The translations under genes were made by a program, and so were the position numbers. This document shows, piece after piece, positions 19,960-55,495 of a DNA stretch of 64,000 bases; within the stretch, counting starts at the first letter, position 1, and every line of letters begins with the position of its first letter. Below the pieces are notes generated by a model, which was not told the origin of the DNA, ran no database searches, and worked only from the letters and a program-made list of their open reading frames with translations. The DNA comes from Candidatus Zhuqueibacterota bacterium (lineage in GTDB: Bacteria > Zhuqueibacterota > Zhuqueibacteria > Thermofontimicrobiales > Thermofontimicrobiaceae), in NCBI GenBank assembly GCA_049322915.1, contig JBMOPW010000014.1:344983-408982 (forward strand), given 5' to 3'.

Positions 19960-22900
19960 ATGCCACAAAGCAAAAAGTACTACTGGATCGTTACGCTGCT
20001 GTTCATTGTCGGACTTATGTGTTACCATCACACTGTGATGGCGCAGAATTTACAGGTTCGCGTGACCAAAAAACCGATACCGGGAGTGCCTCTTTCCAAA
20101 GGAAATTCGGCTCCGGTTCAACAATTACAGAGCGCGGATAATAAAGGAAAAAGCGCCGAAGCAGTGCCGCTGAAACAAGAAGCGCCGAATGATCCAAACC
20201 TGGGCGCTACGAAGATATCGCAAAGTTACCCTGTCGATCTGTTGAAGGTTCAAAAACCGTTCACCAAGCCAATGGATTATTCAGAGCAAACACAGTCTCA
20301 TAAACCAATTTTAAAAACCGGCAACGGCAAGCTTGACACCGAGCAAACACGTATTGTGAATAAATTGTCGGGCGCTCGGAATGAAGCTGACGTAAGTCCG
20401 TCGGACGAGATTGCTCCCACAAAGGGCAGTTTCACGATGAAAATCCCACTAAACAGGGATGGGCTTGAAGGGACGACAGACAATGGTTCATTTACACTAT
20501 CGAGTGGAACTATCAATCAAAGTATTCCTGATGGCGGTTACTATTGGTTAGGTATGGCCACGGCTACAGTGTTGCCAGCAGGCGCTGTTGTCACTGATTT
20601 AGAATACAGAATTCGAGTGGATGATTCAGGCGATGCTCAGACGTTCTATTGTGGGGATTACGAAATTTATCTTTCGACGGACGCAACGGGCGGAGCGAGC
20701 AGGTACCTGAGCATCTATTATCACCTGGGCGGACGGACGGACGGCGGGTTTGATGATGATACAGAAGACGATAGCGATATTTATCTCAACTGGCGTTCCA
20801 CATCGGAGTTCAACGGCGAGGACGCAAGTCAATTCTTTTTCGCCTGGGTGGAAGATAGTTGGTCTTCGGATTACGGAATATTGAATTATGTGGAATTCAA
20901 TGTATTCTGGGAGACACAAGGCTTGCCCAACTTGAGCGCCGATTTCACGCCGACTGGATGGTCTGGTCCCATTGTCGCTTCTTCAGTGTCCGGGACTAAT
21001 TCTGATGGGCCTGATTTGCAAGCTGGTCAGACCACCTATATCGATTTTGCGTTTGTCAACTGGGATGTCGATATTCCAGCTTCAACACGTTTCTATATTT
21101 ACCTCTACGATGGCTCGTCCTACATTCAAGGCTGGTACATGGATGGATTGGGCGCAAATTATTATGTCACCGTACAAGATTTTGTGTATACCTTCTCGGC
21201 TGGAAACCACACTTTGAACACATCTGTGGATGCCACTGATGTGGTGGCAGAATCAGACGAGTATGATAACGAGTATTCAAAGACATTTTATTGGGCTTCG
21301 GGCGGGTTACCAAACCTCATTGCCGCTTACACCCCGACTGGCTGGGATTATCCCATCGTCGCGTCGTCAGTCGCCGGGACGAATACCGCTGGCCCGAGTC
21401 TGAAGGCTGGCGAGACGACCTATATTGATTTTGCGATCATCAATCAGGATCAGGATATTCCATCCGGAACCACGTTCTGGGTCTATCTCTACGATGGGTC
21501 AACTTATTTACAGGGCTGGTACTGGGATGGCTTGCTCCAGGACTGGTACGGATATGTTGAAGATTATCAATCCATTTTCACAGCGGGATATCACACATTA
21601 GCGACAGAGGCTGATGCCACGGATGTTGTGGCAGAATCCGATGAATCTGACAATGAATATGCGCGTCAGTATTTCTGGGACTCAACGCCGGCCGGCGATC
21701 CGGATATTGATGTTCAGCCTTTGTCGATTACAATCAACGAGACGTCCGGGAATGCGAATGCCAACACCAAAAATTCCGGGTTGCGCAGTGACGAGTTTTC
21801 CATCGTTGCGCCCATTGATAGCAAATACATCGTCGGAACAGCGATTACCAAAAATGGCAACGAGGTGGTGAAGGTGATTGTCCCGGGAAAACCGCCTGAT
21901 AATTATCGCGCGCCTGCGGCGCAGATGTCGCTCGCCGCTGTAACGCTGCCCACAATGCCCGCATACGATTGGTCATTCGGCTGCTCTGCCACATCCGCTG
22001 CCATGATGGCCGGCTATTATGACAATGTCGGCTATACGAACATGTACACCGGACCGACAAATGGCGGCGTGATGCCAATGGATAATTCCTCATGGGGCGC
22101 CGTCTTTATCAACGGGGAAACGAGAAGTCAGTGCCCGTTGAGCGCCACGAGAAATACCGTGGATGGGCGAACGACGCGCGGCCATGTGGATGATTACTGG
22201 ATCAAATACGGCGAAGGAGGTCCTGATCCGTTCGTAACAAACGGCTGGACAGAACATACACAGGGTGAGTGCACCGGCGATTATATGGGAACCAACCAGG
22301 ATTATTGGGACAACACAGACGGTTCAACAACATTCTGGATGAACTTTGATGGCTCTCCGTTGTATGACTTTTCTGAATGTGAAACCTACTCGCCGCCTTC
22401 TCGGGATGGCTGCCACGGTATGCGCCTGTTTTTTGAATCCAGAGGCTATGTGGTCATTCAAAACTACACACAGCTCATCTATGGTTACAATGGCAACACG
22501 CTCGGTTTCACCTATCAGCAGTACAAAAGCGAAATCGATGCCGGCCGCCCGGTGATGATTCACGTGGAAGGGCATAGCATGGTCGGCGTCGGTTATGATA
22601 ATAGCAGCAGCACCATCTATATCCATGATACGTGGGATTATCAGACCCATACGATGACCTGGGGCGGCGACTATTCCGGTTTGCAGCATTGGGGAGTTTC
22701 AGTTGTGGAATTGGAACCTACTACAGGCCCGGGCGATTATTTCGTGATCTACAATATTGGCAGTGCCGTGTTGACGATAGATGGAATTTCCAACTCGAAA
22801 AGCTGGTTGACAACCAGCGCCTTCCCGGCCACACCATTCACCATCCAGCCGGGCGGCAATCAATCAGTGATCCTGAATGTCGATTGGAACCTGGTGGCTG

Positions 22901-24885
22901 CTCAGGATCAGGACCTGGTTGACATTCATTCCAATGATCCGGATGAAGCGGTTGTCTCGGTGACTGTCACTGCAAATCCGGCCGGATCGCCGGCGCTATC
23001 GGTGAGCCCGTCGAGCTATCATGCGCCAGTGAGCGGAGGGAGCCAGGTTGTCACAGTGGCAAACAGCGGCTCGGGCGGAACTTTCACGTGGACAGCCTCG
23101 CCGAGCAATACCTGGATCACGGTGAATCCAACGACCGGCGCTCCCGGCCAAACATTCACGTTATCCGTTCAGGCGAACTCGGGCGCTTCGCGATCGGGCG
23201 CAGTCACTGTCAGTGCGCCGGGAGCGGCTGACTCACCGCAAAGCGTGCAGGTGAATCAGGATGGTTCCGGCGACCAGGTGAATTTGTGGATCGACACCAA
23301 TCTTGGCGGCCCCCAGGGCGCGTCGATTACGATTCCCATTCATTGCAGCGATCTCACCGGCAAGTCCGTCTACTCATCGGATATTTCAATCAGCTATGAT
23401 CAAAACGTCCTGACTGCTGTTGACACAGATATTAGCGGGACAGTCCTTGCGGCTTCTGGCTGGAGCGCGCCGACAAAAAATATTACGCCGGGAAAAATTA
23501 CCATGGCCCTGGCCGGCAGTTCGCCATTGTCCGGCAGCGGTGATCTCGTTAAAATCGTGTTCACTATTAACGGCGCTACGGGCAGCAGCACATCCCTGCA
23601 TTTCGAAACTGCAATGATGAATGAAGGCCAGCCCCCTGTTTCCGGTACGGATGGATTTTTCACTGTCATGGAAACCCGATTCGACGTAACCGGCCGGGTC
23701 GGCTATTATTCCGATTCTGCCAAGCCAGTGGGTAATGTGAATGTGGCAGCCACCGGCGCTGAGAGCAAAACGGCGACCACCAATGCCTCCGGCGATTATG
23801 GGTTACTGGATTTGACTCAGGGCAATTATACCGTGACGCCACAGAAGAGCGGCGGGATCAATAATGCCGTCACAGCTTTCGACGCTTCCATCATTCTGCG
23901 CTTCTCTGTTGGTTTGTACACCTTAACTCCGTACGCGAAACTGGCTGCGGACGTCTCCGGGAATGGCGCCATCACGGCCTACGACGCCTCGTTCATTTTG
24001 CGGTACAGCGTTGGCGCTGTGACCAGTTTCCCGGTCGGAACAGACTGGACGTTCGTCCCGGGCGATTTCTCAATTTCTGACGCCAACTGGTCCACTGCTC
24101 CCCGCGGTCGTACGTACACCCCGCTGAGCGCAAATCAGGCCGGTCAGGATTTCGTCGGCATTTTGTACGGCGATGCTTCGGGCAACTGGACCGGGGCGAG
24201 GTTGTCCGGCGCTGGCGCGCAAGTCGAAATTGGGATAGATGAGATCAAGCGACAGAGCGAAGGGAGAATACTCGTTCCGCTGGAAGTGAATTTTTCAGAT
24301 GAGGCTTATTCCGGCAGTTTCACAGTAAACATGAACAGCGCCAACCTGACGTATGTGTCCAGCTCTCTGAGAAATGTCCAGGCGGACGAAGTCATGTGCG
24401 CTGGAAAAACAATTCATCAGGGCGCAACAATCGCGCTGGCGTCTGCCCATCCTCTGCATCAGAAAGGATTGGTGATCGATCTGGTGTTTGAAGCGACAGG
24501 GCCGGTCGATCTGGCTGCGCTGGGATTCGATTTCTCCGATATTACTGTGGATGATCACAGCACAAACCTCACGGTTGTGCGCGATCATTCCGGGCAGGAA
24601 ATTCCCGATGAATGGAAACTGGAACAGAATTATCCGAATCCATTTAATTCCGGCACAGTCATAAATTACCATGTCCCGCAATCATCCCACGTAGTCATTG
24701 AAGTCTACAATCTGCTGGGACAGCGGCTCAGTACCCTGGTGAATCAGGCTATGGAACCCGGTTCGTACCATGTCAATTGGAACGGGCTTGACGACGCAGG
24801 TAAATTTGTGGGAAGCGGCATTTATCTGTACAAGATGCGCGCTGGCAGTTTCACGCTGATGAAGAAAATGGTGCTGGTGCAGTAA
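19960..24885 (+). CDS. Secreted papain-like (C39/C10-like) peptidase with 2x CARDB, BACON-like, cohesin, dockerin and CTD
   Basis: Two CARDB repeats (PNL...VAESDE.DNEY); GCSATSAAM (Cys675), GHSM (His872), IHDTW (Asp890); cohesin-like GASITIPI...SYDQNVL; dockerin pair TAFDAS.ILR / ADVSGNGAITAYDAS; CTD. Confidence 0.82.
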   Translation: MPQSKKYYWIVTLLFIVGLMCYHHTVMAQNLQVRVTKKPIPGVPLSKGNSAPVQQLQSADNKGKSAEAVPLKQEAPNDPNLGATKISQSYPVDLLKVQKPFTKPMDYSEQTQSHKPILKTGNGKLDTEQTRIVNKLSGARNEADVSPSDEIAPTKGSFTMKIPLNRDGLEGTTDNGSFTLSSGTINQSIPDGGYYWLGMATATVLPAGAVVTDLEYRIRVDDSGDAQTFYCGDYEIYLSTDATGGASRYLSIYYHLGGRTDGGFDDDTEDDSDIYLNWRSTSEFNGEDASQFFFAWVEDSWSSDYGILNYVEFNVFWETQGLPNLSADFTPTGWSGPIVASSVSGTNSDGPDLQAGQTTYIDFAFVNWDVDIPASTRFYIYLYDGSSYIQGWYMDGLGANYYVTVQDFVYTFSAGNHTLNTSVDATDVVAESDEYDNEYSKTFYWASGGLPNLIAAYTPTGWDYPIVASSVAGTNTAGPSLKAGETTYIDFAIINQDQDIPSGTTFWVYLYDGSTYLQGWYWDGLLQDWYGYVEDYQSIFTAGYHTLATEADATDVVAESDESDNEYARQYFWDSTPAGDPDIDVQPLSITINETSGNANANTKNSGLRSDEFSIVAPIDSKYIVGTAITKNGNEVVKVIVPGKPPDNYRAPAAQMSLAAVTLPTMPAYDWSFGCSATSAAMMAGYYDNVGYTNMYTGPTNGGVMPMDNSSWGAVFINGETRSQCPLSATRNTVDGRTTRGHVDDYWIKYGEGGPDPFVTNGWTEHTQGECTGDYMGTNQDYWDNTDGSTTFWMNFDGSPLYDFSECETYSPPSRDGCHGMRLFFESRGYVVIQNYTQLIYGYNGNTLGFTYQQYKSEIDAGRPVMIHVEGHSMVGVGYDNSSSTIYIHDTWDYQTHTMTWGGDYSGLQHWGVSVVELEPTTGPGDYFVIYNIGSAVLTIDGISNSKSWLTTSAFPATPFTIQPGGNQSVILNVDWNLVAAQDQDLVDIHSNDPDEAVVSVTVTANPAGSPALSVSPSSYHAPVSGGSQVVTVANSGSGGTFTWTASPSNTWITVNPTTGAPGQTFTLSVQANSGASRSGAVTVSAPGAADSPQSVQVNQDGSGDQVNLWIDTNLGGPQGASITIPIHCSDLTGKSVYSSDISISYDQNVLTAVDTDISGTVLAASGWSAPTKNITPGKITMALAGSSPLSGSGDLVKIVFTINGATGSSTSLHFETAMMNEGQPPVSGTDGFFTVMETRFDVTGRVGYYSDSAKPVGNVNVAATGAESKTATTNASGDYGLLDLTQGNYTVTPQKSGGINNAVTAFDASIILRFSVGLYTLTPYAKLAADVSGNGAITAYDASFILRYSVGAVTSFPVGTDWTFVPGDFSISDANWSTAPRGRTYTPLSANQAGQDFVGILYGDASGNWTGARLSGAGAQVEIGIDEIKRQSEGRILVPLEVNFSDEAYSGSFTVNMNSANLTYVSSSLRNVQADEVMCAGKTIHQGATIALASAHPLHQKGLVIDLVFEATGPVDLAALGFDFSDITVDDHSTNLTVVRDHSGQEIPDEWKLEQNYPNPFNSGTVINYHVPQSSHVVIEVYNLLGQRLSTLVNQAMEPGSYHVNWNGLDDAGKFVGSGIYLYKMRAGSFTLMKKMVLVQ

Positions 24886-25091: not shown

Positions 25092-28000
25092 TCAAATGTC
25101 TTTGTCGCCGAAATAGGTGTAAAAAACCGGCACGGCGATCAGACTGATGACCGTCGAGATACTGAGTCCGATGATCAATGTGATAGCCAGGGGTTGCTGC
25201 AATTCAGCGCCTTCGCCGAAGCCAAGCGCCATGGGAAATAAGCCCAGAACAGTGGTAATAAACGTCATGATGATAGGGCGAAATCGCTTTTTACTGGCCT
25301 CATCGATTGCTTCCAAAACAGTGGCGCCCTGTCTGCGGTGTTGATTGATAAAGTCGACTTTCACGATGGAATCGTTCACCGCGATGCCGGCGAGCACAAT
25401 CAACCCGATGAAGGAAATGACATTCAGTCCGATGCCGCTGAGCCAGAGAACGATGCTGAGAAAGGCGATGGTCAACGGCACATCCAGCAGGATGATGAAC
25501 GGATGCCTGAGCGATTCAAATTGCGCTGCCATAATCATGTAGATCAGCAGGATAGCGATGACCAGCGCAAAGACGAGGCTGCGGAATGAGCGGTGCACCT
25601 CTTCCTGCTCGCCGCCGATGACGATCTGGTAATCCGGCGGGATTTGTATTGGGTCAAGCGTGCGCGTAATGTCGCTGACTACGTCGCTGAGGCTTCGATT
25701 GGAAATGTTGGCTAACAGGCAGACCTGCCGGTTCTGGTCTTCATGGCGAATTTCACTGGGGCCCAGTGAGGGTGTGACAGTCACCAGTTCCCGCAGTGGG
25801 ATGGTGAGGTTATTTTCAGTGATGGCAAGGCTCAACAAATCGGCCAAATCGTCTCGCTGAGAGAGCTGCGGCCGAACCATCACGGAAATTTTACGGTCGA
25901 AATCCTTGAATTCCGTCGCCTGCAAACCGGCGAGTTGGTATTTGATGAATTCAGCGATGGTGGCTACGGTGAAGCCATAGCGGCTGGCTTTTTCCCTGTC
26001 GATTTCAATTCGGTACTCCGGCTGTCCTTCAATGTAGTCCGAGTGAAGGTCTTTCAATCCCGCAATGCCCGCGAGTCGTTGGGCGATGGAATCGGCCATG
26101 TCGCGACATGCGCTCAACTCGCTGCCGCGAAACTTAATGACAATCGGCGGGGTTGCCGTCCCTAAAATCTGTTGAAAAATATGTTCGCCGCTGTCGAATG
26201 TCAGAGTGCCGGCAGTCAAACCGGCAGCGTGAGATCGGAGTGCGGTAACCAAGTCGCCGGTGGAGCGGGCGCGTTTTTTTTTCAATTGGATCTGGAGTTT
26301 GGCGTGATTGATTCCTGCGTCTTCGGAAAATTGCGCCGCCTGATCTTCGCTCAGTCCGATGGCGGAAAATACCGCCGCGACATCGGGCTGGGACGTGAGC
26401 CATTTCTCGATCGTCGAAGCGGCGGCCTCGGTCGCTTCCAGCGTACTGCCAACCGGCAATTCCATGTTCACGGAAAATTCGCCCTGATCAACCAGTGGCA
26501 TCAACTGACGATTCATGAAACGAATGGATACCAGACCCAGAACAAAAAGGATGACCACGATGACGATGAATCGTCCCCGATAATTGAGGGAGAGTTGGAG
26601 CAGCCAGTGGTAACCAACCTCAGCGGATTCGTACTGCCGGTCGAACCAGTTGAAGATCGGTTGCATTCGCTTGTGAATTCGGGATGAAATCTTTTGCAGG
26701 GAAGACCTGAAAAAATCGGACAGGGCTCGGAGCAGTTGGCTCGCGCCAAAGCCGCTGTAAAAGGCCAACCAGAGGATGGGATTGACCAGCCATTTCCAGG
26801 GGCGACTGGAAATTTTTCGCGGCGACCCCGCTGTGGTGGGTTGTCGCTCCATTGTTCTGAGAAACGAATCCGGCTGGAATCGGCAGCTCATCATGGGAAG
26901 CAGCGTGAGCGCGACGACGAGAGAAGCGATCAGCGAGAAGGCAACGGTGATAGCCTGATCGTGGAAGAGCTGGCCGGCGACACCGTAGATGTAGACCACG
27001 GGAAGGAAAATCGCGATTGTGGTGAAGGTGGATGCAGAAATAGCCAGGGCCACTTCTTTGGCACCGAGGTACGCTGCCTCCATCATGGGCTTCCCTTCCT
27101 GCCGATGCCGGAAGATGTTTTCCAGCACAATAATGGCGTTGTCCACCAACATACCAACGCCCAGCGCCAGCCCTCCGATGGACATGATATTCAAACTGAT
27201 GCCTGAAAAATAAAGCAGGCCAAAAGTAGCCAGCACAGAAATAGGGATGGACAGGGAGATATTGAACGGATTTCTGAAATCGTGGAGGAAAACGAACAGC
27301 ACTAAAAACGATAGCAGCGCGCCGAGGTAGAGGTTTTGCATGACTGAGCTGATGGAACTGGAAATGAATCTGGCGCTGTTGTAAGCGACCGTGATTTGAA
27401 TATTCGGATTTTCGCGTCGTAACTGGTCTAATACCTCATCGATCAATTTACTGACAGCGACGGTATTGGCCCCGGCCTCCTTGCGCACAATCACCCCGAT
27501 GCTCTCATTGTTGTTGAAGCGCGTGATGCTCTGCCGATCACGAAAGCCGTCCACGACGCGGGCAATATCGCGAATCCGAATTTGCGAGCCATCATCCCGA
27601 TGCTGAATGACGACATTCTCGATCTCGGCTACGTCCTGAAATTCACTGATGGTTCGGAGGGAGTAGCGATAAAGGCCGCGCTTGATTGTCCCGCCGGTGA
27701 TGCTGTAATTGGCGAGCTTCAGCGCATTGGTCACCTGATTGGAACTGAGATGCAGCGCATGGAGCGCGCGCTGGTCAACATCAACCTGTATCTCCCGCTC
27801 CAGGCCGCCGGTCACAGTGGCCATCGCCACGCCTTTGATCTGTTCCAGGCGGCGCTTGAAGACATTGCGCGCAAGTTCTTTGAGATGGACGAGATTGCTG
27901 CCCGACAGCGAAATGGCCATGATGGGCTGATTTCGGGGATCGATGCGAAGGATGTTGGGCCGCTCAGCTTCCCGGGGCAGTGTCCAGCGAAGCTGATCCA

Positions 28001-28334
28001 GTTTCTCACGGATGCTCAGCGTGGCAAAATCCATGTGCGTGCCCCAGAGAAATTCAATGGTGACTAGCGATAATCCATTTTTGGAGACGGAATTTGTGCT
28101 CCGAATGCCCTCCACCGTGCCTATGGATTCTTCAATGGGGCGGGTGATTAACTCTTCAATCTCCCGGGGACCCATATCTTCCATCGTCGTCCAGATGGTC
28201 AATTTGGGATAGGATAGATCCGGCAGAAGGTCAACGCTCAGTTGAAACAGAGAAATAATTCCGATGAGACAGACTGCCACGAAAAACATCGTGGTCGAGA
28301 CAGGCCGATTGATGGATAGTTGAGATATATGCAT
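25092..28334 (-). CDS. RND efflux transporter permease subunit (AcrB/AcrD/AcrF family)
   Basis: 1080 aa; RPVST, GMLVDNAIIVLEN, MAAQFES, RFRPIIMT, PLA motifs. Confidence 0.93.
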   Translation of the reverse strand: MHISQLSINRPVSTTMFFVAVCLIGIISLFQLSVDLLPDLSYPKLTIWTTMEDMGPREIEELITRPIEESIGTVEGIRSTNSVSKNGLSLVTIEFLWGTHMDFATLSIREKLDQLRWTLPREAERPNILRIDPRNQPIMAISLSGSNLVHLKELARNVFKRRLEQIKGVAMATVTGGLEREIQVDVDQRALHALHLSSNQVTNALKLANYSITGGTIKRGLYRYSLRTISEFQDVAEIENVVIQHRDDGSQIRIRDIARVVDGFRDRQSITRFNNNESIGVIVRKEAGANTVAVSKLIDEVLDQLRRENPNIQITVAYNSARFISSSISSVMQNLYLGALLSFLVLFVFLHDFRNPFNISLSIPISVLATFGLLYFSGISLNIMSIGGLALGVGMLVDNAIIVLENIFRHRQEGKPMMEAAYLGAKEVALAISASTFTTIAIFLPVVYIYGVAGQLFHDQAITVAFSLIASLVVALTLLPMMSCRFQPDSFLRTMERQPTTAGSPRKISSRPWKWLVNPILWLAFYSGFGASQLLRALSDFFRSSLQKISSRIHKRMQPIFNWFDRQYESAEVGYHWLLQLSLNYRGRFIVIVVILFVLGLVSIRFMNRQLMPLVDQGEFSVNMELPVGSTLEATEAAASTIEKWLTSQPDVAAVFSAIGLSEDQAAQFSEDAGINHAKLQIQLKKKRARSTGDLVTALRSHAAGLTAGTLTFDSGEHIFQQILGTATPPIVIKFRGSELSACRDMADSIAQRLAGIAGLKDLHSDYIEGQPEYRIEIDREKASRYGFTVATIAEFIKYQLAGLQATEFKDFDRKISVMVRPQLSQRDDLADLLSLAITENNLTIPLRELVTVTPSLGPSEIRHEDQNRQVCLLANISNRSLSDVVSDITRTLDPIQIPPDYQIVIGGEQEEVHRSFRSLVFALVIAILLIYMIMAAQFESLRHPFIILLDVPLTIAFLSIVLWLSGIGLNVISFIGLIVLAGIAVNDSIVKVDFINQHRRQGATVLEAIDEASKKRFRPIIMTFITTVLGLFPMALGFGEGAELQQPLAITLIIGLSISTVISLIAVPVFYTYFGDKDI

Positions 28335-28363
28335 GAATTGCAGCAGGTTAAATTATAAGTTAC

Positions 28364-28947
28364 GTAATTGATCACAGGGGATCAAAAGTTGTATTTGTTT
28401 ACTTTGGACAGGATAACAGGATGATAATGATTTACCGGATTATTCTCTATCCGGTAATATCCTCACCTTTCTTTTTACTTCTACCTTATGTGGAGAGAAA
28501 TTCAGCAATAAGCCTACTGGTTTGATAGTGGCCGTTAGATAATTCACCAACTGGACTTCAAACTCCTTTACTATTTTTTCTACGGATTTCAATTCAATGA
28601 TGATCAGCTCGTCGACAATAATATCCGCTTTAAAATTGCCGACGACTACTCCTTCATAATAAACCTTTATGGGTTTTTGTCTTTCTACAGCAAATCCCAT
28701 TTTTTTTAATTCAATTGTCAGGGCATTTTCATAAACAGACTCCAAAAAACCAAATCCTAACATGTTATATACGTTGTAAGCACAGCCAATAATTTTTTCA
28801 GTCAAGCTTGCAAGTTCCATTACGCAGCCTCCTGTGATTTACACGATTATGTTTTGATTAACATGATAAAGAGCTAAAGTTAATTAATCCTGTCTATCCC
28901 AAACATCCTGTTATCCTGTCATTCTTAACTACCCTGTGATCGGTTAC
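28364..28947. mobile_element. Inverted-repeat-bounded cassette carrying the GxxExxY gene (IS66-like GTAA ends)
   Basis: Outer IR GTAATTGATCACAGGG (28364-28379)/CCCTGTGATCGGTTAC (28932-28947), 14/16; inner perfect 17-bp IR GACAGGATAACAGGATG (28407-28423/28904-28920); flanks TAAGTTAC/AAAGTTCT match 5/8 in register. Confidence 0.65.
28440..28820 (-). CDS. GxxExxY protein (PD-(D/E)XK nuclease family)
   Basis: LGFGFLESVYENAL, KADIIV..IIELKSV, QLVNYL, GLLLNF; GGAGG RBS; visibly more AT-rich than its neighbours. Confidence 0.93.
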   Translation of the reverse strand: MELASLTEKIIGCAYNVYNMLGFGFLESVYENALTIELKKMGFAVERQKPIKVYYEGVVVGNFKADIIVDELIIIELKSVEKIVKEFEVQLVNYLTATIKPVGLLLNFSPHKVEVKRKVRILPDRE

Positions 28948-29126
28948 AAAGTTCTAAGTTAATGGACAATCTTCCTGAGTTCAATTGACCGGCGGCTGCA
29001 TCAATCAAGGTTGGAATAAATGCCCCCGGCTGTTTGCCGTCGAGTTTCCCGCGTTCCGGCGCAGGTAGGGATTCCGCAAAATGTCAGAAAATCCTGAGTT
29101 AGCATAAGAGCGCATTGGGACCGGTT

Positions 29127-30401
29127 TCACTTGTCCTGACTGACGACGCGAACTTCAGCGTCGTGAGCCAGTGTATAGTGGCCGGACGTGATGACCCATT
29201 CACCGGGCTGGAGCGCCATTTTGGAGTTCAGAATTTCGACAAATTCTTCGTTTTCCAGACCGGTTTCAACATAATCCCATTTGGCCAATTTTTCATGTGC
29301 ATCATTTTCTCTGACAATGAAAATCAGGTTACGCTGATCCCGCGTCAAAATAGCCGTGCGCGGCACGAGCAGCCGCTCCTGAAAAATTTGAGCGTCCAGC
29401 TTTACATAGGCGAACATGCCACCTTTGATTTTATTGTCCGGATTATCGATCTCAACCGTGACGCGGCAGGTCTTGTTTTCCGGGTCGACCAGCGGATTGA
29501 TCGTGATGATTTTTCCATTGAAAGTTTCGCCCGGGAAAGCCGGCAATTGGATGGAGGCAGCGCGGCCGACTTTGACATGCTGAATTTCACTTTCAAGCAC
29601 GCCGACATACACGCGGATGCGCGACATATCCATCAGCTTCAGGCATTCCTGGCCGGCAGCGACAAATTGCCCGGCCTGGACAATGACATCCCCAACGGTT
29701 CCGGCAAAGGGGGCTTTCATTTCGCAGTAAGACAAATTCAATTTGGCGCGTTCAAAATTAATCAGCGACGATGAAAAACCAGTCTGACTGGCGACCATTT
29801 CCTCATGCCGAATGCCGGGAATGATCTGGGCGCTCTGATAATTCAACCGAATCCGTTCGTATGTCGGCTCGTCGATCTCACCGTTTTTGTATTGCAGCTG
29901 GGCCTGTTTCCATTCCAGGCTCAGTTGGTTCAATTTATTCACGGCGCTCGAATCAACCAACTCGGCTAATAACTTCCTGTCGACCTTTTTAATTTCAAAT
30001 TCTCCGCGCGATTTCAGCAATCGGTCGCGCGCCTCGGAGAGCGACAACTGGTATTCCCTGTCGTCGAGCTGCAGGAGAAGATCGCCGGCGCGGACATGCT
30101 GCCCTTCATAAGCCGGCAATTTCAGGATTTCACCGCTCACTTTCGGGCTGAGCGTAATCTGGCGAATGGCCTCGGTTTGCCCGGATGCTGAAACGCGAAT
30201 GACCAGGGTTCCCAGATGCGACGGTTCAGCTTCGACGAGAATGGGAGCTGCTTTTTCCTCAGCGGTTCCTGCAGCGGAGTTGGTTTGTTTCGTTTCTGAA
30301 TCGCTGGATTTGTTTTTTGGCAGTATGAATTTCACAGTGAGAAAAGCAAGGACGGCAAGAAACACTAATACAAAAATGGCAATAACAATTTTCTTGGACA
30401 T
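29127..30401 (-). CDS. RND efflux periplasmic adaptor (membrane fusion protein)
   Basis: N-terminal TM; VSGEI...EGQ.V..GDLL, KAPFAG.V, G.I..I.P.VDP...T, GMFA motifs. Confidence 0.92.
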   Translation of the reverse strand: MSKKIVIAIFVLVFLAVLAFLTVKFILPKNKSSDSETKQTNSAAGTAEEKAAPILVEAEPSHLGTLVIRVSASGQTEAIRQITLSPKVSGEILKLPAYEGQHVRAGDLLLQLDDREYQLSLSEARDRLLKSRGEFEIKKVDRKLLAELVDSSAVNKLNQLSLEWKQAQLQYKNGEIDEPTYERIRLNYQSAQIIPGIRHEEMVASQTGFSSSLINFERAKLNLSYCEMKAPFAGTVGDVIVQAGQFVAAGQECLKLMDMSRIRVYVGVLESEIQHVKVGRAASIQLPAFPGETFNGKIITINPLVDPENKTCRVTVEIDNPDNKIKGGMFAYVKLDAQIFQERLLVPRTAILTRDQRNLIFIVRENDAHEKLAKWDYVETGLENEEFVEILNSKMALQPGEWVITSGHYTLAHDAEVRVVSQDK

Positions 30402-53025: not shown

Positions 53026-53287
53026 GGCTATCCCGGATTAATATGGTTCGTATTGGCTTCGCAGTATGAGGGAACGCCCGCATCATTCGGGCGGATCGAA
53101 TCGGTTACTTAGAGCTGCGTTGAATTATCGAGTATGTCCATAAAAAACCACTGCATTGCGCCGGAAGGATTGCGACAGTCAAGGCAGTCGTCGAAATCCA
53201 TGTTTCAATCCGCTCACTGACGGACGTTTCGGCGTGGTACAGCGCCATGCAGGTGAAAGTTTAAAATGCATGTCAAAAAAATTCTGA

Positions 53288-53360
53288 CCCACGAAATACA
53301 CAAAAATCCACGCACATTGGACTTACATAACATCCGTGTGTTTTCGTGTTTTTCGTGGGC
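53288..53360. repeat. Inverted repeat of ~9-bp CACGAAA units
   Basis: CCCACGAAATACACAAAAATCCACG opposite CGTGTGTTTTCGTGTTTTTCGTGGG, downstream of rodZ. Confidence 0.6.
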
Positions 53361-53402
53361 AGATTTTGATTGGAACATACGGTTCAGATTTTCACAAGGT
53401 AT

Positions 53403-54913: not shown

Positions 54914-55335
54914 AAAAAAATTCTTGTGTTACGGAGATGAAAAAAAGCGAGTTTTTCAACCGTTATTTCTACTTCAACTGATAAAAAAACTCTATTCGGA
55001 TCCGGATTTCCATCGATCATTTAATGGGCGAAAAATTCAGTGTTAAAAAACGGGTCTTAGTAAAAATCAACGAGTTTTTCCCGATGAAAAAGGCATTAAA
55101 TTTTTCGCTGCAACACAATTACTATATACTTATTTTTTATACAAAAATCAAGTAAAAAATTTAAAGAAATTTAGTGCATATCTGAGCGAAATTCTGAAGG
55201 TCGGCGGCGATGTTGCCCTGCTGAATTTTGAAGCGATGGCAACATGAAGGCAAGGATGATTGTAAATGCAATGATAGCGTTCCGCTGAACCAGCATCCGG
55301 CGCATGAATAATCAGAATGATAGGATGGAAATTCA

Positions 55336-55495
55336 GTGACTATTCGGCTGCGAAGCACAAAGAAAAAGAAATCGAAAAGTATGAGCTGTGAGAAGCTGAA
55401 TTTGGTTTTAAAAAAAGTTGAATAAGAAATTTACATCTTCGTGTAACTTGGTGATCCAGAGTCTTTGCGGTAAGAAAAGATGCCTGAATAGTGAC
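55336..55495. mobile_element. 160-bp MITE with IS66-like ends and a perfect 8-bp TSD
   Basis: Ends GTGACTATTCGG/CTGAATAGTGAC (10/12 IR); GAAATTCA duplicated at 55328-55335 and 55496-55503; degenerate CTTCGTGT/CACAAAG units inside. Confidence 0.75.

Follow-up and report, generated by a model that had tools for sequence, protein, structure and literature searches.

A GxxExxY nuclease gene between inverted heptamer arrays in an RND pump operon of a Zhuqueibacterota bacterium

The window analyzed here, a stretch of 64,000 nucleotides from a Candidatus Zhuqueibacterota genome, contains a GxxExxY nuclease gene that lies between the adaptor and permease genes of an RND pump operon and is enclosed by inverted arrays of the heptamer ACAGGAT. 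The package to which this cassette belongs is widespread, and its architecture is a trait of the family rather than a local oddity. The explanation to which we lean, though only slightly, is that the unit is a promoterless, selfish hairpin cassette comparable to the intervening sequences (IVSs) of 23S rRNA genes.

Inverted heptamer arrays around the GxxExxY gene

The features of the cassette and the two pump genes are as follows (positions in the window; arrays named in gene sense; IR, inverted repeat).

25092..28334, minus strand: RND permease gene (AcrB family), downstream in the operon (PF00873, E 2.9e-241)
28364..28379: outer IR, left arm, with the degenerate unit CACAGGG; 16 nt, 88% complementary to the right arm
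28407..28423, minus strand: 3′ heptamer array of two units, reverse complement of the 5′ array (perfect 17-nt core)
28432..28457, minus strand: local hairpin over the stop codon (ACCGGAT 28434-28440, ATCCGGT 28449-28455)
28440..28820, minus strand: GxxExxY / PD-(D/E)XK nuclease gene, 126 aa, stop codon 28440-28442 (open reading frame, profiles)
28821..28886, minus strand: leader, with GGAGG ribosome-binding site at 28828-28832 (sequence)
28887..28920, minus strand: 5′ heptamer array of three ACAGGAT units, terminal G at 28920 (sequence, IR, exact 15-mer match)
28932..28947: outer IR, right arm, pairing with 28364-28379
29127..30401, minus strand: RND adaptor gene (membrane-fusion, HlyD-type), upstream in the operon (PF16576 / PF13437)

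Adaptor and permease genes usually adjoin or overlap. Here, 792 nt separate the adaptor stop from the permease start, and this gap holds one open reading frame (ORF), on the strand of the pump genes. A preliminary description, made from the sequence alone, had reported an AT-rich nuclease-gene unit within nested IRs at this position, and this is borne out. The GC content is 0.33-0.37 in the unit, compared to about 0.50-0.55 in the pump genes, the protein matches PF13366 and TIGR04256, and both IRs are found. In gene sense, the order of elements is outer arm, three ACAGGAT units, leader, ORF, stop-codon hairpin, two ATCCTGT units and outer arm. On the plus strand, the units of the 5′ array read ATCCTGT (28887-28893, 28905-28911 and 28913-28919) and those of the 3′ array ACAGGAT (28408-28414 and 28416-28422). 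The inner IR pairs 28407-28442 with 28885-28920, over 36 nt and with 81% complementarity, and includes the perfect 17-nt core GACAGGATAACAGGATG, built of ACAGGAT units as had been described.

The smaller repeats of the preliminary description are also present. A forward and a reverse variant unit make up the hairpin over the stop codon, which has a 9-bp stem (z -2.4; 5 of 200 shuffles are equal or better), and a similar trio of forward unit, loop and reverse unit follows the stop codon in many related cassettes. In the leader, two degenerate units of the reverse type, ACACGAT (28841-28847) and ACATGAT (28861-28867), are located ahead of the ribosome-binding site. A related leader, ATCCnGT-TAATCAAAA...ATCAnAACCTnAAGGAGG, occurs in about 14 of 32 aligned related cassettes (counted by eye). 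The outer right arm is repeated in weaker form (CCTGAGTTCAATTGAC-like) at 28973-28990, 26 nt beyond the first copy and inside the 179-nt non-coding stretch from the cassette to the adaptor stop; its IR partner is 28366-28378.

The flank IR score compares the 200 nt upstream of a gene with the reverse complement of the 200 nt downstream, against 100 shuffles; only the mononucleotide content is kept in the shuffles of our scripts. The best flank IR of the window copy has a score of 34, compared to a mean of 16.7 for the shuffles, none of which reaches 34. When the transcript strand is folded over 28350-28960, the outer and inner arms are predicted to close the whole unit (-160.3 kcal/mol; z -4.35, 20 shuffles).

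The packaging was compared across the best 80 loci of one protein subfamily, obtained by a profile search of genome contigs with an alignment of close homologs (56-69% identity). The window's own genome is not in those 80 loci (best 69% identity). ORFs in the loci were called mechanically, as the longest non-overlapping ones of at least 100 aa. The flank IR has a z score above 4 in 52 of the 72 GxxExxY genes with complete flanks (window included). Scores of 28 or higher are reached by 49 of the 72 genes, compared to 7 of 427 neighboring ORFs, which provide a natural control. Two of the seven are themselves GxxExxY genes, and at least two others have heptamer hairpin elements on either side.

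The arm sequence is nearly constant: the upstream arm reads TTnGACAGGAT(n)ACAGGATnnACAGGAT, and the downstream arm is the reverse complement of this. ACAGGAT arrays (at least two units, with at most one mismatch each) number 285 in 813,967 bp, compared to 8 in the shuffle. The starts of adjacent units are 9 bp apart in 207 cases and 8 bp apart in 68, and the number of units is three in 113 of 157 arms. Although neither is part of the search pattern, the G ahead of the first unit (96%) and a run of T before it are conserved. Upstream arrays would offer two or three CsrA-like ACAGGAU sites per transcript. The canonical layout, with tandem (G)ACAGGAT arrays upstream and the reverse complement downstream, is found at 65 of 81 loci. 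Arrays lie on both sides at 73 loci, on one side only at 7 and on neither side at one (L067).

There are also gene-less copies of the repeats. Among 103 adjacent pairs of forward and reverse arrays, 58 contain a GxxExxY gene or fragment and 45 are gene-less, with 6-274 nt between the arrays (one 1,126-nt case looks like chance). No other complete gene is enclosed by an ACAGGAT array pair (0 of 103 pairs). The loci contain 201 small ORFs, and the 23 of these within 200 nt of an array, which were scanned against Pfam, are ordinary neighbors, except for one PF05635 gene with a repeat type of its own. Gene-less hairpins reach a density of about one per kb in L062 and L071, and tandem runs of them are present in L050, L054 and L073. 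Two further cases come from L012 (1068-1248 and 5229-6423). In one copy, the arms are intact but the gene is cut down to its first 29 codons, and hairpins can therefore arise from cassettes by internal deletion. Separately, a whole cassette is duplicated in tandem along with a piece of host flank. Regular runs of gene-less hairpins or single arms, with periods of 125, 94 and 34 bp, are found among L050:6406-6783, L054:10643-10854, L073:6406-6525 and L059:5488-6994; at L059, three near-identical 260-bp elements surround the gene.

Gene-less relatives had been proposed within the window as well, near 2620, 53288 and 55336. Two of these are hairpins, but none has ACAGGAT arrays. The first (2615-2740) is a modest intergenic hairpin (z -3.1). 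Its right arm contains three units with a 9-bp period, ATCAGCG / ATCCGCG / ATCAGTG. These units (ATC(A/C)G(C/T)G) resemble the CGCGGAT hairpin beside a GxxExxY gene of Gemmatirosa. The second (53284-53362) is a strong intergenic hairpin (z -5.8) with about 29 interrupted pairs and CACGAAA-like units, which resemble those upstream of a distant GxxExxY paralog in L006. Both are possible hairpin elements with units of a different type. The third candidate (55330-55475) has no structure (z 0.07) and was rejected. Tandem 7-mers with a period of 8-10 bp number two in the window, one of them in the 2620 element, compared to 0-2 in 20 shuffles, so that there is no enrichment in the window.

Likeness to intervening sequences and other repeat elements

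The closest known counterpart of the cassette is the ORF-bearing 23S rRNA IVS. The Coxiella IVS is described as a selfish element of 428 nt in which a stem of inverted repeats surrounds an S23p ORF, encoding a four-helix bundle (PMC4990558). Three tandem GACAGAT heptamers are located ahead of this ORF, and RNase III cuts the stem at the start of the first repeat. The same account reports the ORF as decaying and describes the mobility of 23S rRNA IVSs as unknown (PMC4990558).

Both the cassette and the IVS have a small ORF in the loop of a long inverted-repeat stem. The heptamer in the 5′ arm of the IVS, as published there, is one base off the cassette unit GACAGGAT, and in both elements the heptamers are tandem and just before the ORF. 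The sense strand of the IVS is carried in the host transcript, according to the same account, and the cassette likewise lies in sense orientation. Pairing of the arms in the mRNA, as proposed in the preliminary description, is consistent with the predicted fold and with the example of this heptamer-armed IVS whose stem is cut by RNase III.

There are clear differences, however. The cassette is located in an mRNA operon between protein genes, while the IVS is in helix 25 or 45 of 23S rRNA. The cargo is a PD-(D/E)XK nuclease (PF13366) in the cassette and an S23p / PF05635 four-helix bundle in the IVS. The nuclease gene is under strong purifying selection (see below), whereas the Coxiella ORF is described as decaying (PMC4990558). 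Moreover, that account gives cleavage by RNase III for the IVS, and the cassette is known through its predicted stem.

Two of the related loci have other heptamers. At L022 (5339-5790 and 5868-6407), a PF05635 gene (E 4.7e-41) is directly upstream of a GxxExxY cassette. It has inverted TCAGA(A/T)-type units of its own (28 nt, 75%), while the adjoining GxxExxY gene has ACAGGAT units. At L057:7930-8660, two gene-less hairpins with CACAGAT / CGCAGAT units lie on either side of a DsbA-like ORF, and this heptamer is close to the one published for the rRNA IVS. Together with the likeness to the IVS, these loci suggest that hairpin cassettes with heptamer arms form a single class, in which the units are specific to the cargo. 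A bolder proposal, and in our judgment a rather doubtful one, is that GxxExxY cassettes and S23p-type rRNA IVSs belong to a single, as yet undescribed class of mobile elements that are autonomous and differ in their cargo. In this class, a small protein between inverted arrays of a cognate heptamer would recognize these arrays. The nuclease version would insert into, or convert, hairpin sites without target duplication, and excision at the RNA level would permit life in operons and rRNA genes. If this were true, the rRNA IVSs would be those members of an element family found throughout the bacteria that have landed in rRNA genes, which would account for their unexplained origin and spread.

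Other known systems share some of these properties. In REPIN-RAYT systems, the gene is described as flanked by inverted repetitive extragenic palindromes (REPs). The cassette is alike in having a single small gene between inverted short repeats, and gene-less hairpin doublets accompany both. The RAYT, however, is a Y1 (HUH) transposase rather than a PD-(D/E)XK nuclease, and its repeats are unlike the tandem heptamer arrays of the cassette. In addition, RAYTs are described as single-copy and mostly vertically inherited, while GxxExxY genes are multi-copy and cross-phylum, with signs of horizontal transfer. Free-standing homing endonucleases of the PD-(D/E)XK kind exist, I-Ssp6803I being an example. 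Homing endonuclease genes and the cassette have in common a small nuclease gene, patchy presence and absence, and conserved gene orders. In comparison, the cassette occurs at many sites rather than one cognate site, its own repeats bracket the gene, and there is no intron or intein.

Correia elements have a TA target duplication, and none is seen in the cassettes (0 of 85 for 8-bp repeats). They are gene-less and limited to Neisseria, while the cassette carries a gene. Both the Correia repeat enclosed elements and the cassette are IR-bounded and lie among co-transcribed neighboring genes, as judged for the cassette by gene orientation. The paired arms of the Neisseria elements are reported to bind RNase III and to be cleaved by it (PMC2649163). 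Finally, the cassette differs from an integron gene cassette, which has a single attC in an integrase array; its repeats are on both sides of the ORF and its neighbors are pump genes.

Borders, spread and distant family members

The termini of 85 elements have the consensus TTnGACAGGAT...ATCCTGTCnAA, and complementarity runs 0-13 nt past the first unit. A target-site duplication (TSD) would give direct repeats at the borders, and 8-bp repeats of this kind are absent from all 85 elements. The longest word shared by the flanks has a mean length of 3.3, compared to 3.15 ± 0.11 for permuted partners. Most GxxExxY genes of the sample are flanked by IRs, but TSDs are not found. The match of the window copy's flanks at 5 of 8 positions in register, noted in the preliminary description, is not above chance. 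GTAA is located outside both arms in 2 of the 85 elements, and the outer CACAGGG-type unit occurs on both sides in one, the window copy. An extra outer IR of any kind is found in 10 of 84 elements, compared to 1 of 84 with permuted partners.

These borders bear on the suggestion that the unit is an IS66-type miniature inverted-repeat transposable element (MITE), with GTAA ends and an 8-bp TSD, in which the nuclease gene is a passenger and an IS66 transposase provides the movement. The outer 16-bp IR of the window copy does begin with GTAA. With no TSD in any element, flanks no more alike than permuted partners, GTAA so rare, an outer arm type confined to one copy, and a different terminal consensus, this reading is contradicted for the family as a whole, and we consider it highly improbable. 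The broader idea of a minimal mobile unit is supported in part: a repeat-packaged nuclease gene is present at many unrelated sites, inside operons and across phyla.

The upstream neighbor is co-directional with the gene in 59 of 70 loci, and both neighbors are in 45 of 64. The GC content of the gene is below that of its flanks in all 72 loci (mean -0.11) and tracks host GC (r 0.88). The insertion points include fabD/fabG, radA/FAD protein and RND adaptor/permease, which are unrelated genes in conserved operons, and several copies can be present in a single metagenome-assembled genome (MAG) or locus (L004/L066, L060 and L012). Protein pairs from different phyla are up to 82-86% identical, which points to horizontal transfer; the number of phyla, above 15, rests on record titles. 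The ratio of nonsynonymous to synonymous rates (dN/dS) is 0.04-0.15 in 18 of 18 pairs with finite dS, and the GxxExxY protein is thus under strong purifying selection.

Four loci of the Cloacimonadota type (L013, L034, L053 and L055) share one common insertion site, so that a cassette can be inherited vertically for long. Among these orthologous cassettes, none of 35 unit positions varies, compared to 13 of 38 leader positions (Fisher 8e-5), which indicates that the unit sequence itself is constrained and not its pairing alone.

GxxExxY genes at 36-56% identity are found in eight plasmid or chromid records. In the annotated ones, the gene is always co-directional and between unrelated genes. 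The repeats beside these genes, and beside two further distant copies, are as follows.

Bacteroides: flanking units CACAGAGGA, inverted
Bernardetia: flanking units CACAGAGA, inverted
Treponema: ACACGGATTCG, one copy per side, inverted
Gemmatirosa: CGCGGAT, three units, complete hairpin, downstream
Sphingomonas: CGCGAAG-type units, upstream only
Distant paralog in L006: TTCACGAAT, upstream only
Plasmid copies of Fusobacteria, Persicobacter and Prevotella: various units, direct

CACGAAT is also among the units of distant GxxExxY genes. The presence of these other units indicates that packaging with repeats is general and that the unit differs by subfamily.

One distant member provides an empty site. 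In Sphingomonas parapaucimobilis (L088:1462-1930), a GxxExxY gene is located between fabD and fabG, while in S. paeninsulae (L089:1336-1372) the two genes are 33 nt apart with nothing in between. This pair is a direct presence/absence difference in a conserved operon, although the gene concerned is a distant relative and lies outside the subfamily of the window's cassette. In L089, there seems to be a frame shift in fabG about 18 codons into the gene. In addition, some proteins of 250-390 aa have two GxxExxY stretches (P0122-P0126, P0155 and P0171) and are fused tandem copies. Those of 250-270 aa hint that GxxExxY might work as a dimer, which would suit the two-fold symmetric arms.

The 126-aa protein of the window matches PF13366 PDDEXK_3 (E 1.6e-39; 135.3 bits, cut-off 22) and TIGR04256 GxxExxY (E 5.7e-41; 139.5 bits, cut-off 35). 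Its GxxExxY motif is G24-F-L-E27-S-V-Y30. The D...ExK nuclease motif is kept, as noted in the preliminary description, with catalytic D66...E76-L-K78. In an alignment of 44 homologs, there is no variation at E27, Y30 and K78 and almost none at G24, D66 and E76. An AlphaFold (AF2) model based on this alignment has a predicted local distance difference test score (pLDDT) of 91.4, and its best matches in the PDB with Foldseek are Cas4 SSO0001 (E 4e-4), lambda exonuclease, Hjc and archaeal splicing endonuclease. According to this model, the protein has a restriction-endonuclease-like (PD-(D/E)XK) fold. A sequence search for a solved relative gives nothing better than E 0.4. The closest database protein is 99% identical and comes from a Candidatus Zhuqueibacterota MAG, per its source.

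A scan of 28200-29300 finds three promoter-like sites, compared to 2.8 expected, and no terminators; a promoter or intrinsic terminator of the cassette's own was rejected, as matches are not in excess of shuffles. At the gathering score of Rfam, no RNA family and no rRNA is found in the window or in 11 related loci. Searches against defense families (PADLOC) give only weak Cas4 matches (E 0.004), and for phage families there is no match in PHROGs and, with tblastn, none in 50,697 phage records. Elsewhere in the window (19960-24885), on the strand opposite to the pump genes, there is a 1,641-aa protein that ends 207 nt from the permease 3′ end. Its domains are cohesin, dockerin, BACON, CARDB, peptidase C39-like and a type IX secretion sorting tail, some of them below Pfam cut-offs.

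Mechanism, alternative explanations and significance

In the mechanism proposed for the IVS-like cassette, the nuclease gene, with its own ribosome-binding site, would sit in the loop of a long hairpin whose stem consists of the inverted (G)ACAGGAT arrays. The cassette would have been inserted between adaptor and permease in their orientation and would be transcribed by read-through from the pump operon. Once transcribed, the two arrays and the extra outer arm would form a stem of about 45 bp with interruptions. If the 23S rRNA IVS is a guide, this stem would be a substrate for RNase III, whose cuts would release the cassette RNA and separate the adaptor and permease cistrons, and the insertion would therefore be tolerated. 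Such processing of the window copy has, in our estimate, an even chance of being correct. The nuclease would recognize the arrays as a hairpin, cruciform DNA or duplex, and would keep or spread the cassette; that it acts on its own arrays and drives their maintenance or spread is a serious possibility, somewhat short of an even chance. Gene-less hairpins would be deletion derivatives or non-autonomous copies.

Several observations weigh against this explanation. The layout is off the canonical one at 16 of the 81 loci, and at L058, L059, L079 and L080 the gene is between complete hairpins and not inside one. The common site of the four Cloacimonadota-type loci represents long vertical retention rather than recent movement. 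The plasmid copies of Fusobacteria, Persicobacter and Prevotella have direct instead of inverted units, and the Fusobacteria plasmid copy L081, although 56% identical, is without ACAGGAT arrays, so that the repeat type is not strictly tied to protein identity. Arm mismatches give G:U in the sense strand in 23 cases and A:C in 17, a difference that does not tell pairing as RNA from pairing as DNA.

It is possible, though unlikely, that the heptamer hairpins themselves are the mobile unit, similar to a REP/REPIN or MITE, and are moved by an enzyme encoded elsewhere (such as a Y1 transposase like those of RAYT or IS200/IS605 systems), with GxxExxY as a frequent passenger kept for its own or the host's benefit. 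Gene-less hairpins are indeed abundant (45 of the 103 pairs, and the dense sets in L062 and L071), TSDs are lacking, and a small hairpin can form at either end, as at the ends of IS200/IS605-type elements. The REPIN-RAYT arrangement, as described, is a precedent for a gene between inverted REPs. On the other hand, none of the 103 pairs holds a gene other than GxxExxY. One heptamer accompanies this subfamily over more than 15 phyla while other subfamilies have other units, and the protein is under strong purifying selection.

That selection would also fit with a resident small nuclease of use to the host, for which the arrays are regulatory sites, for example operators for its own protein or GGA-type sites for an RNA-binding regulator such as CsrA, and the shared architecture comes from common regulation. 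The site kept across four related species, the conservation of the unit beyond the leader and beyond what pairing alone requires, and the resemblance of ACAGGAU to the core of the CsrA consensus from systematic evolution of ligands by exponential enrichment all favor it. We nevertheless find it improbable. A resident gene does not account for insertions between unrelated genes of conserved operons, the empty site in a Sphingomonas congener, a GC content below that of the flanks in 72 of 72 loci, or identities of 82-86% across phyla, and the gene-less copies, deletion derivatives and multiple copies in single MAGs or loci also argue against it.

The function of PDDEXK_3 is listed as unknown in the literature. 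No description of the cassette package, including the array 15-mer, was found in the literature searched, though the InterPro/NCBIfam family descriptions may mention it. The GxxExxY family, whose role is unknown, is very large: at least 7,985 of 8,000 candidates match at E ≤ 0.001, and 16,198 cluster representatives at 50% identity match as well. In one subfamily, the genes are always accompanied by a conserved DNA/RNA element, and other subfamilies have other units, which provides a concrete, testable substrate for this family. The package links GxxExxY genes to the intervening sequences of rRNA genes, for which the question of how they spread has not been settled since they were discovered. 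It also explains how small, low-GC genes can interrupt conserved operons such as fabD-fabG and the RND pumps without apparent harm.

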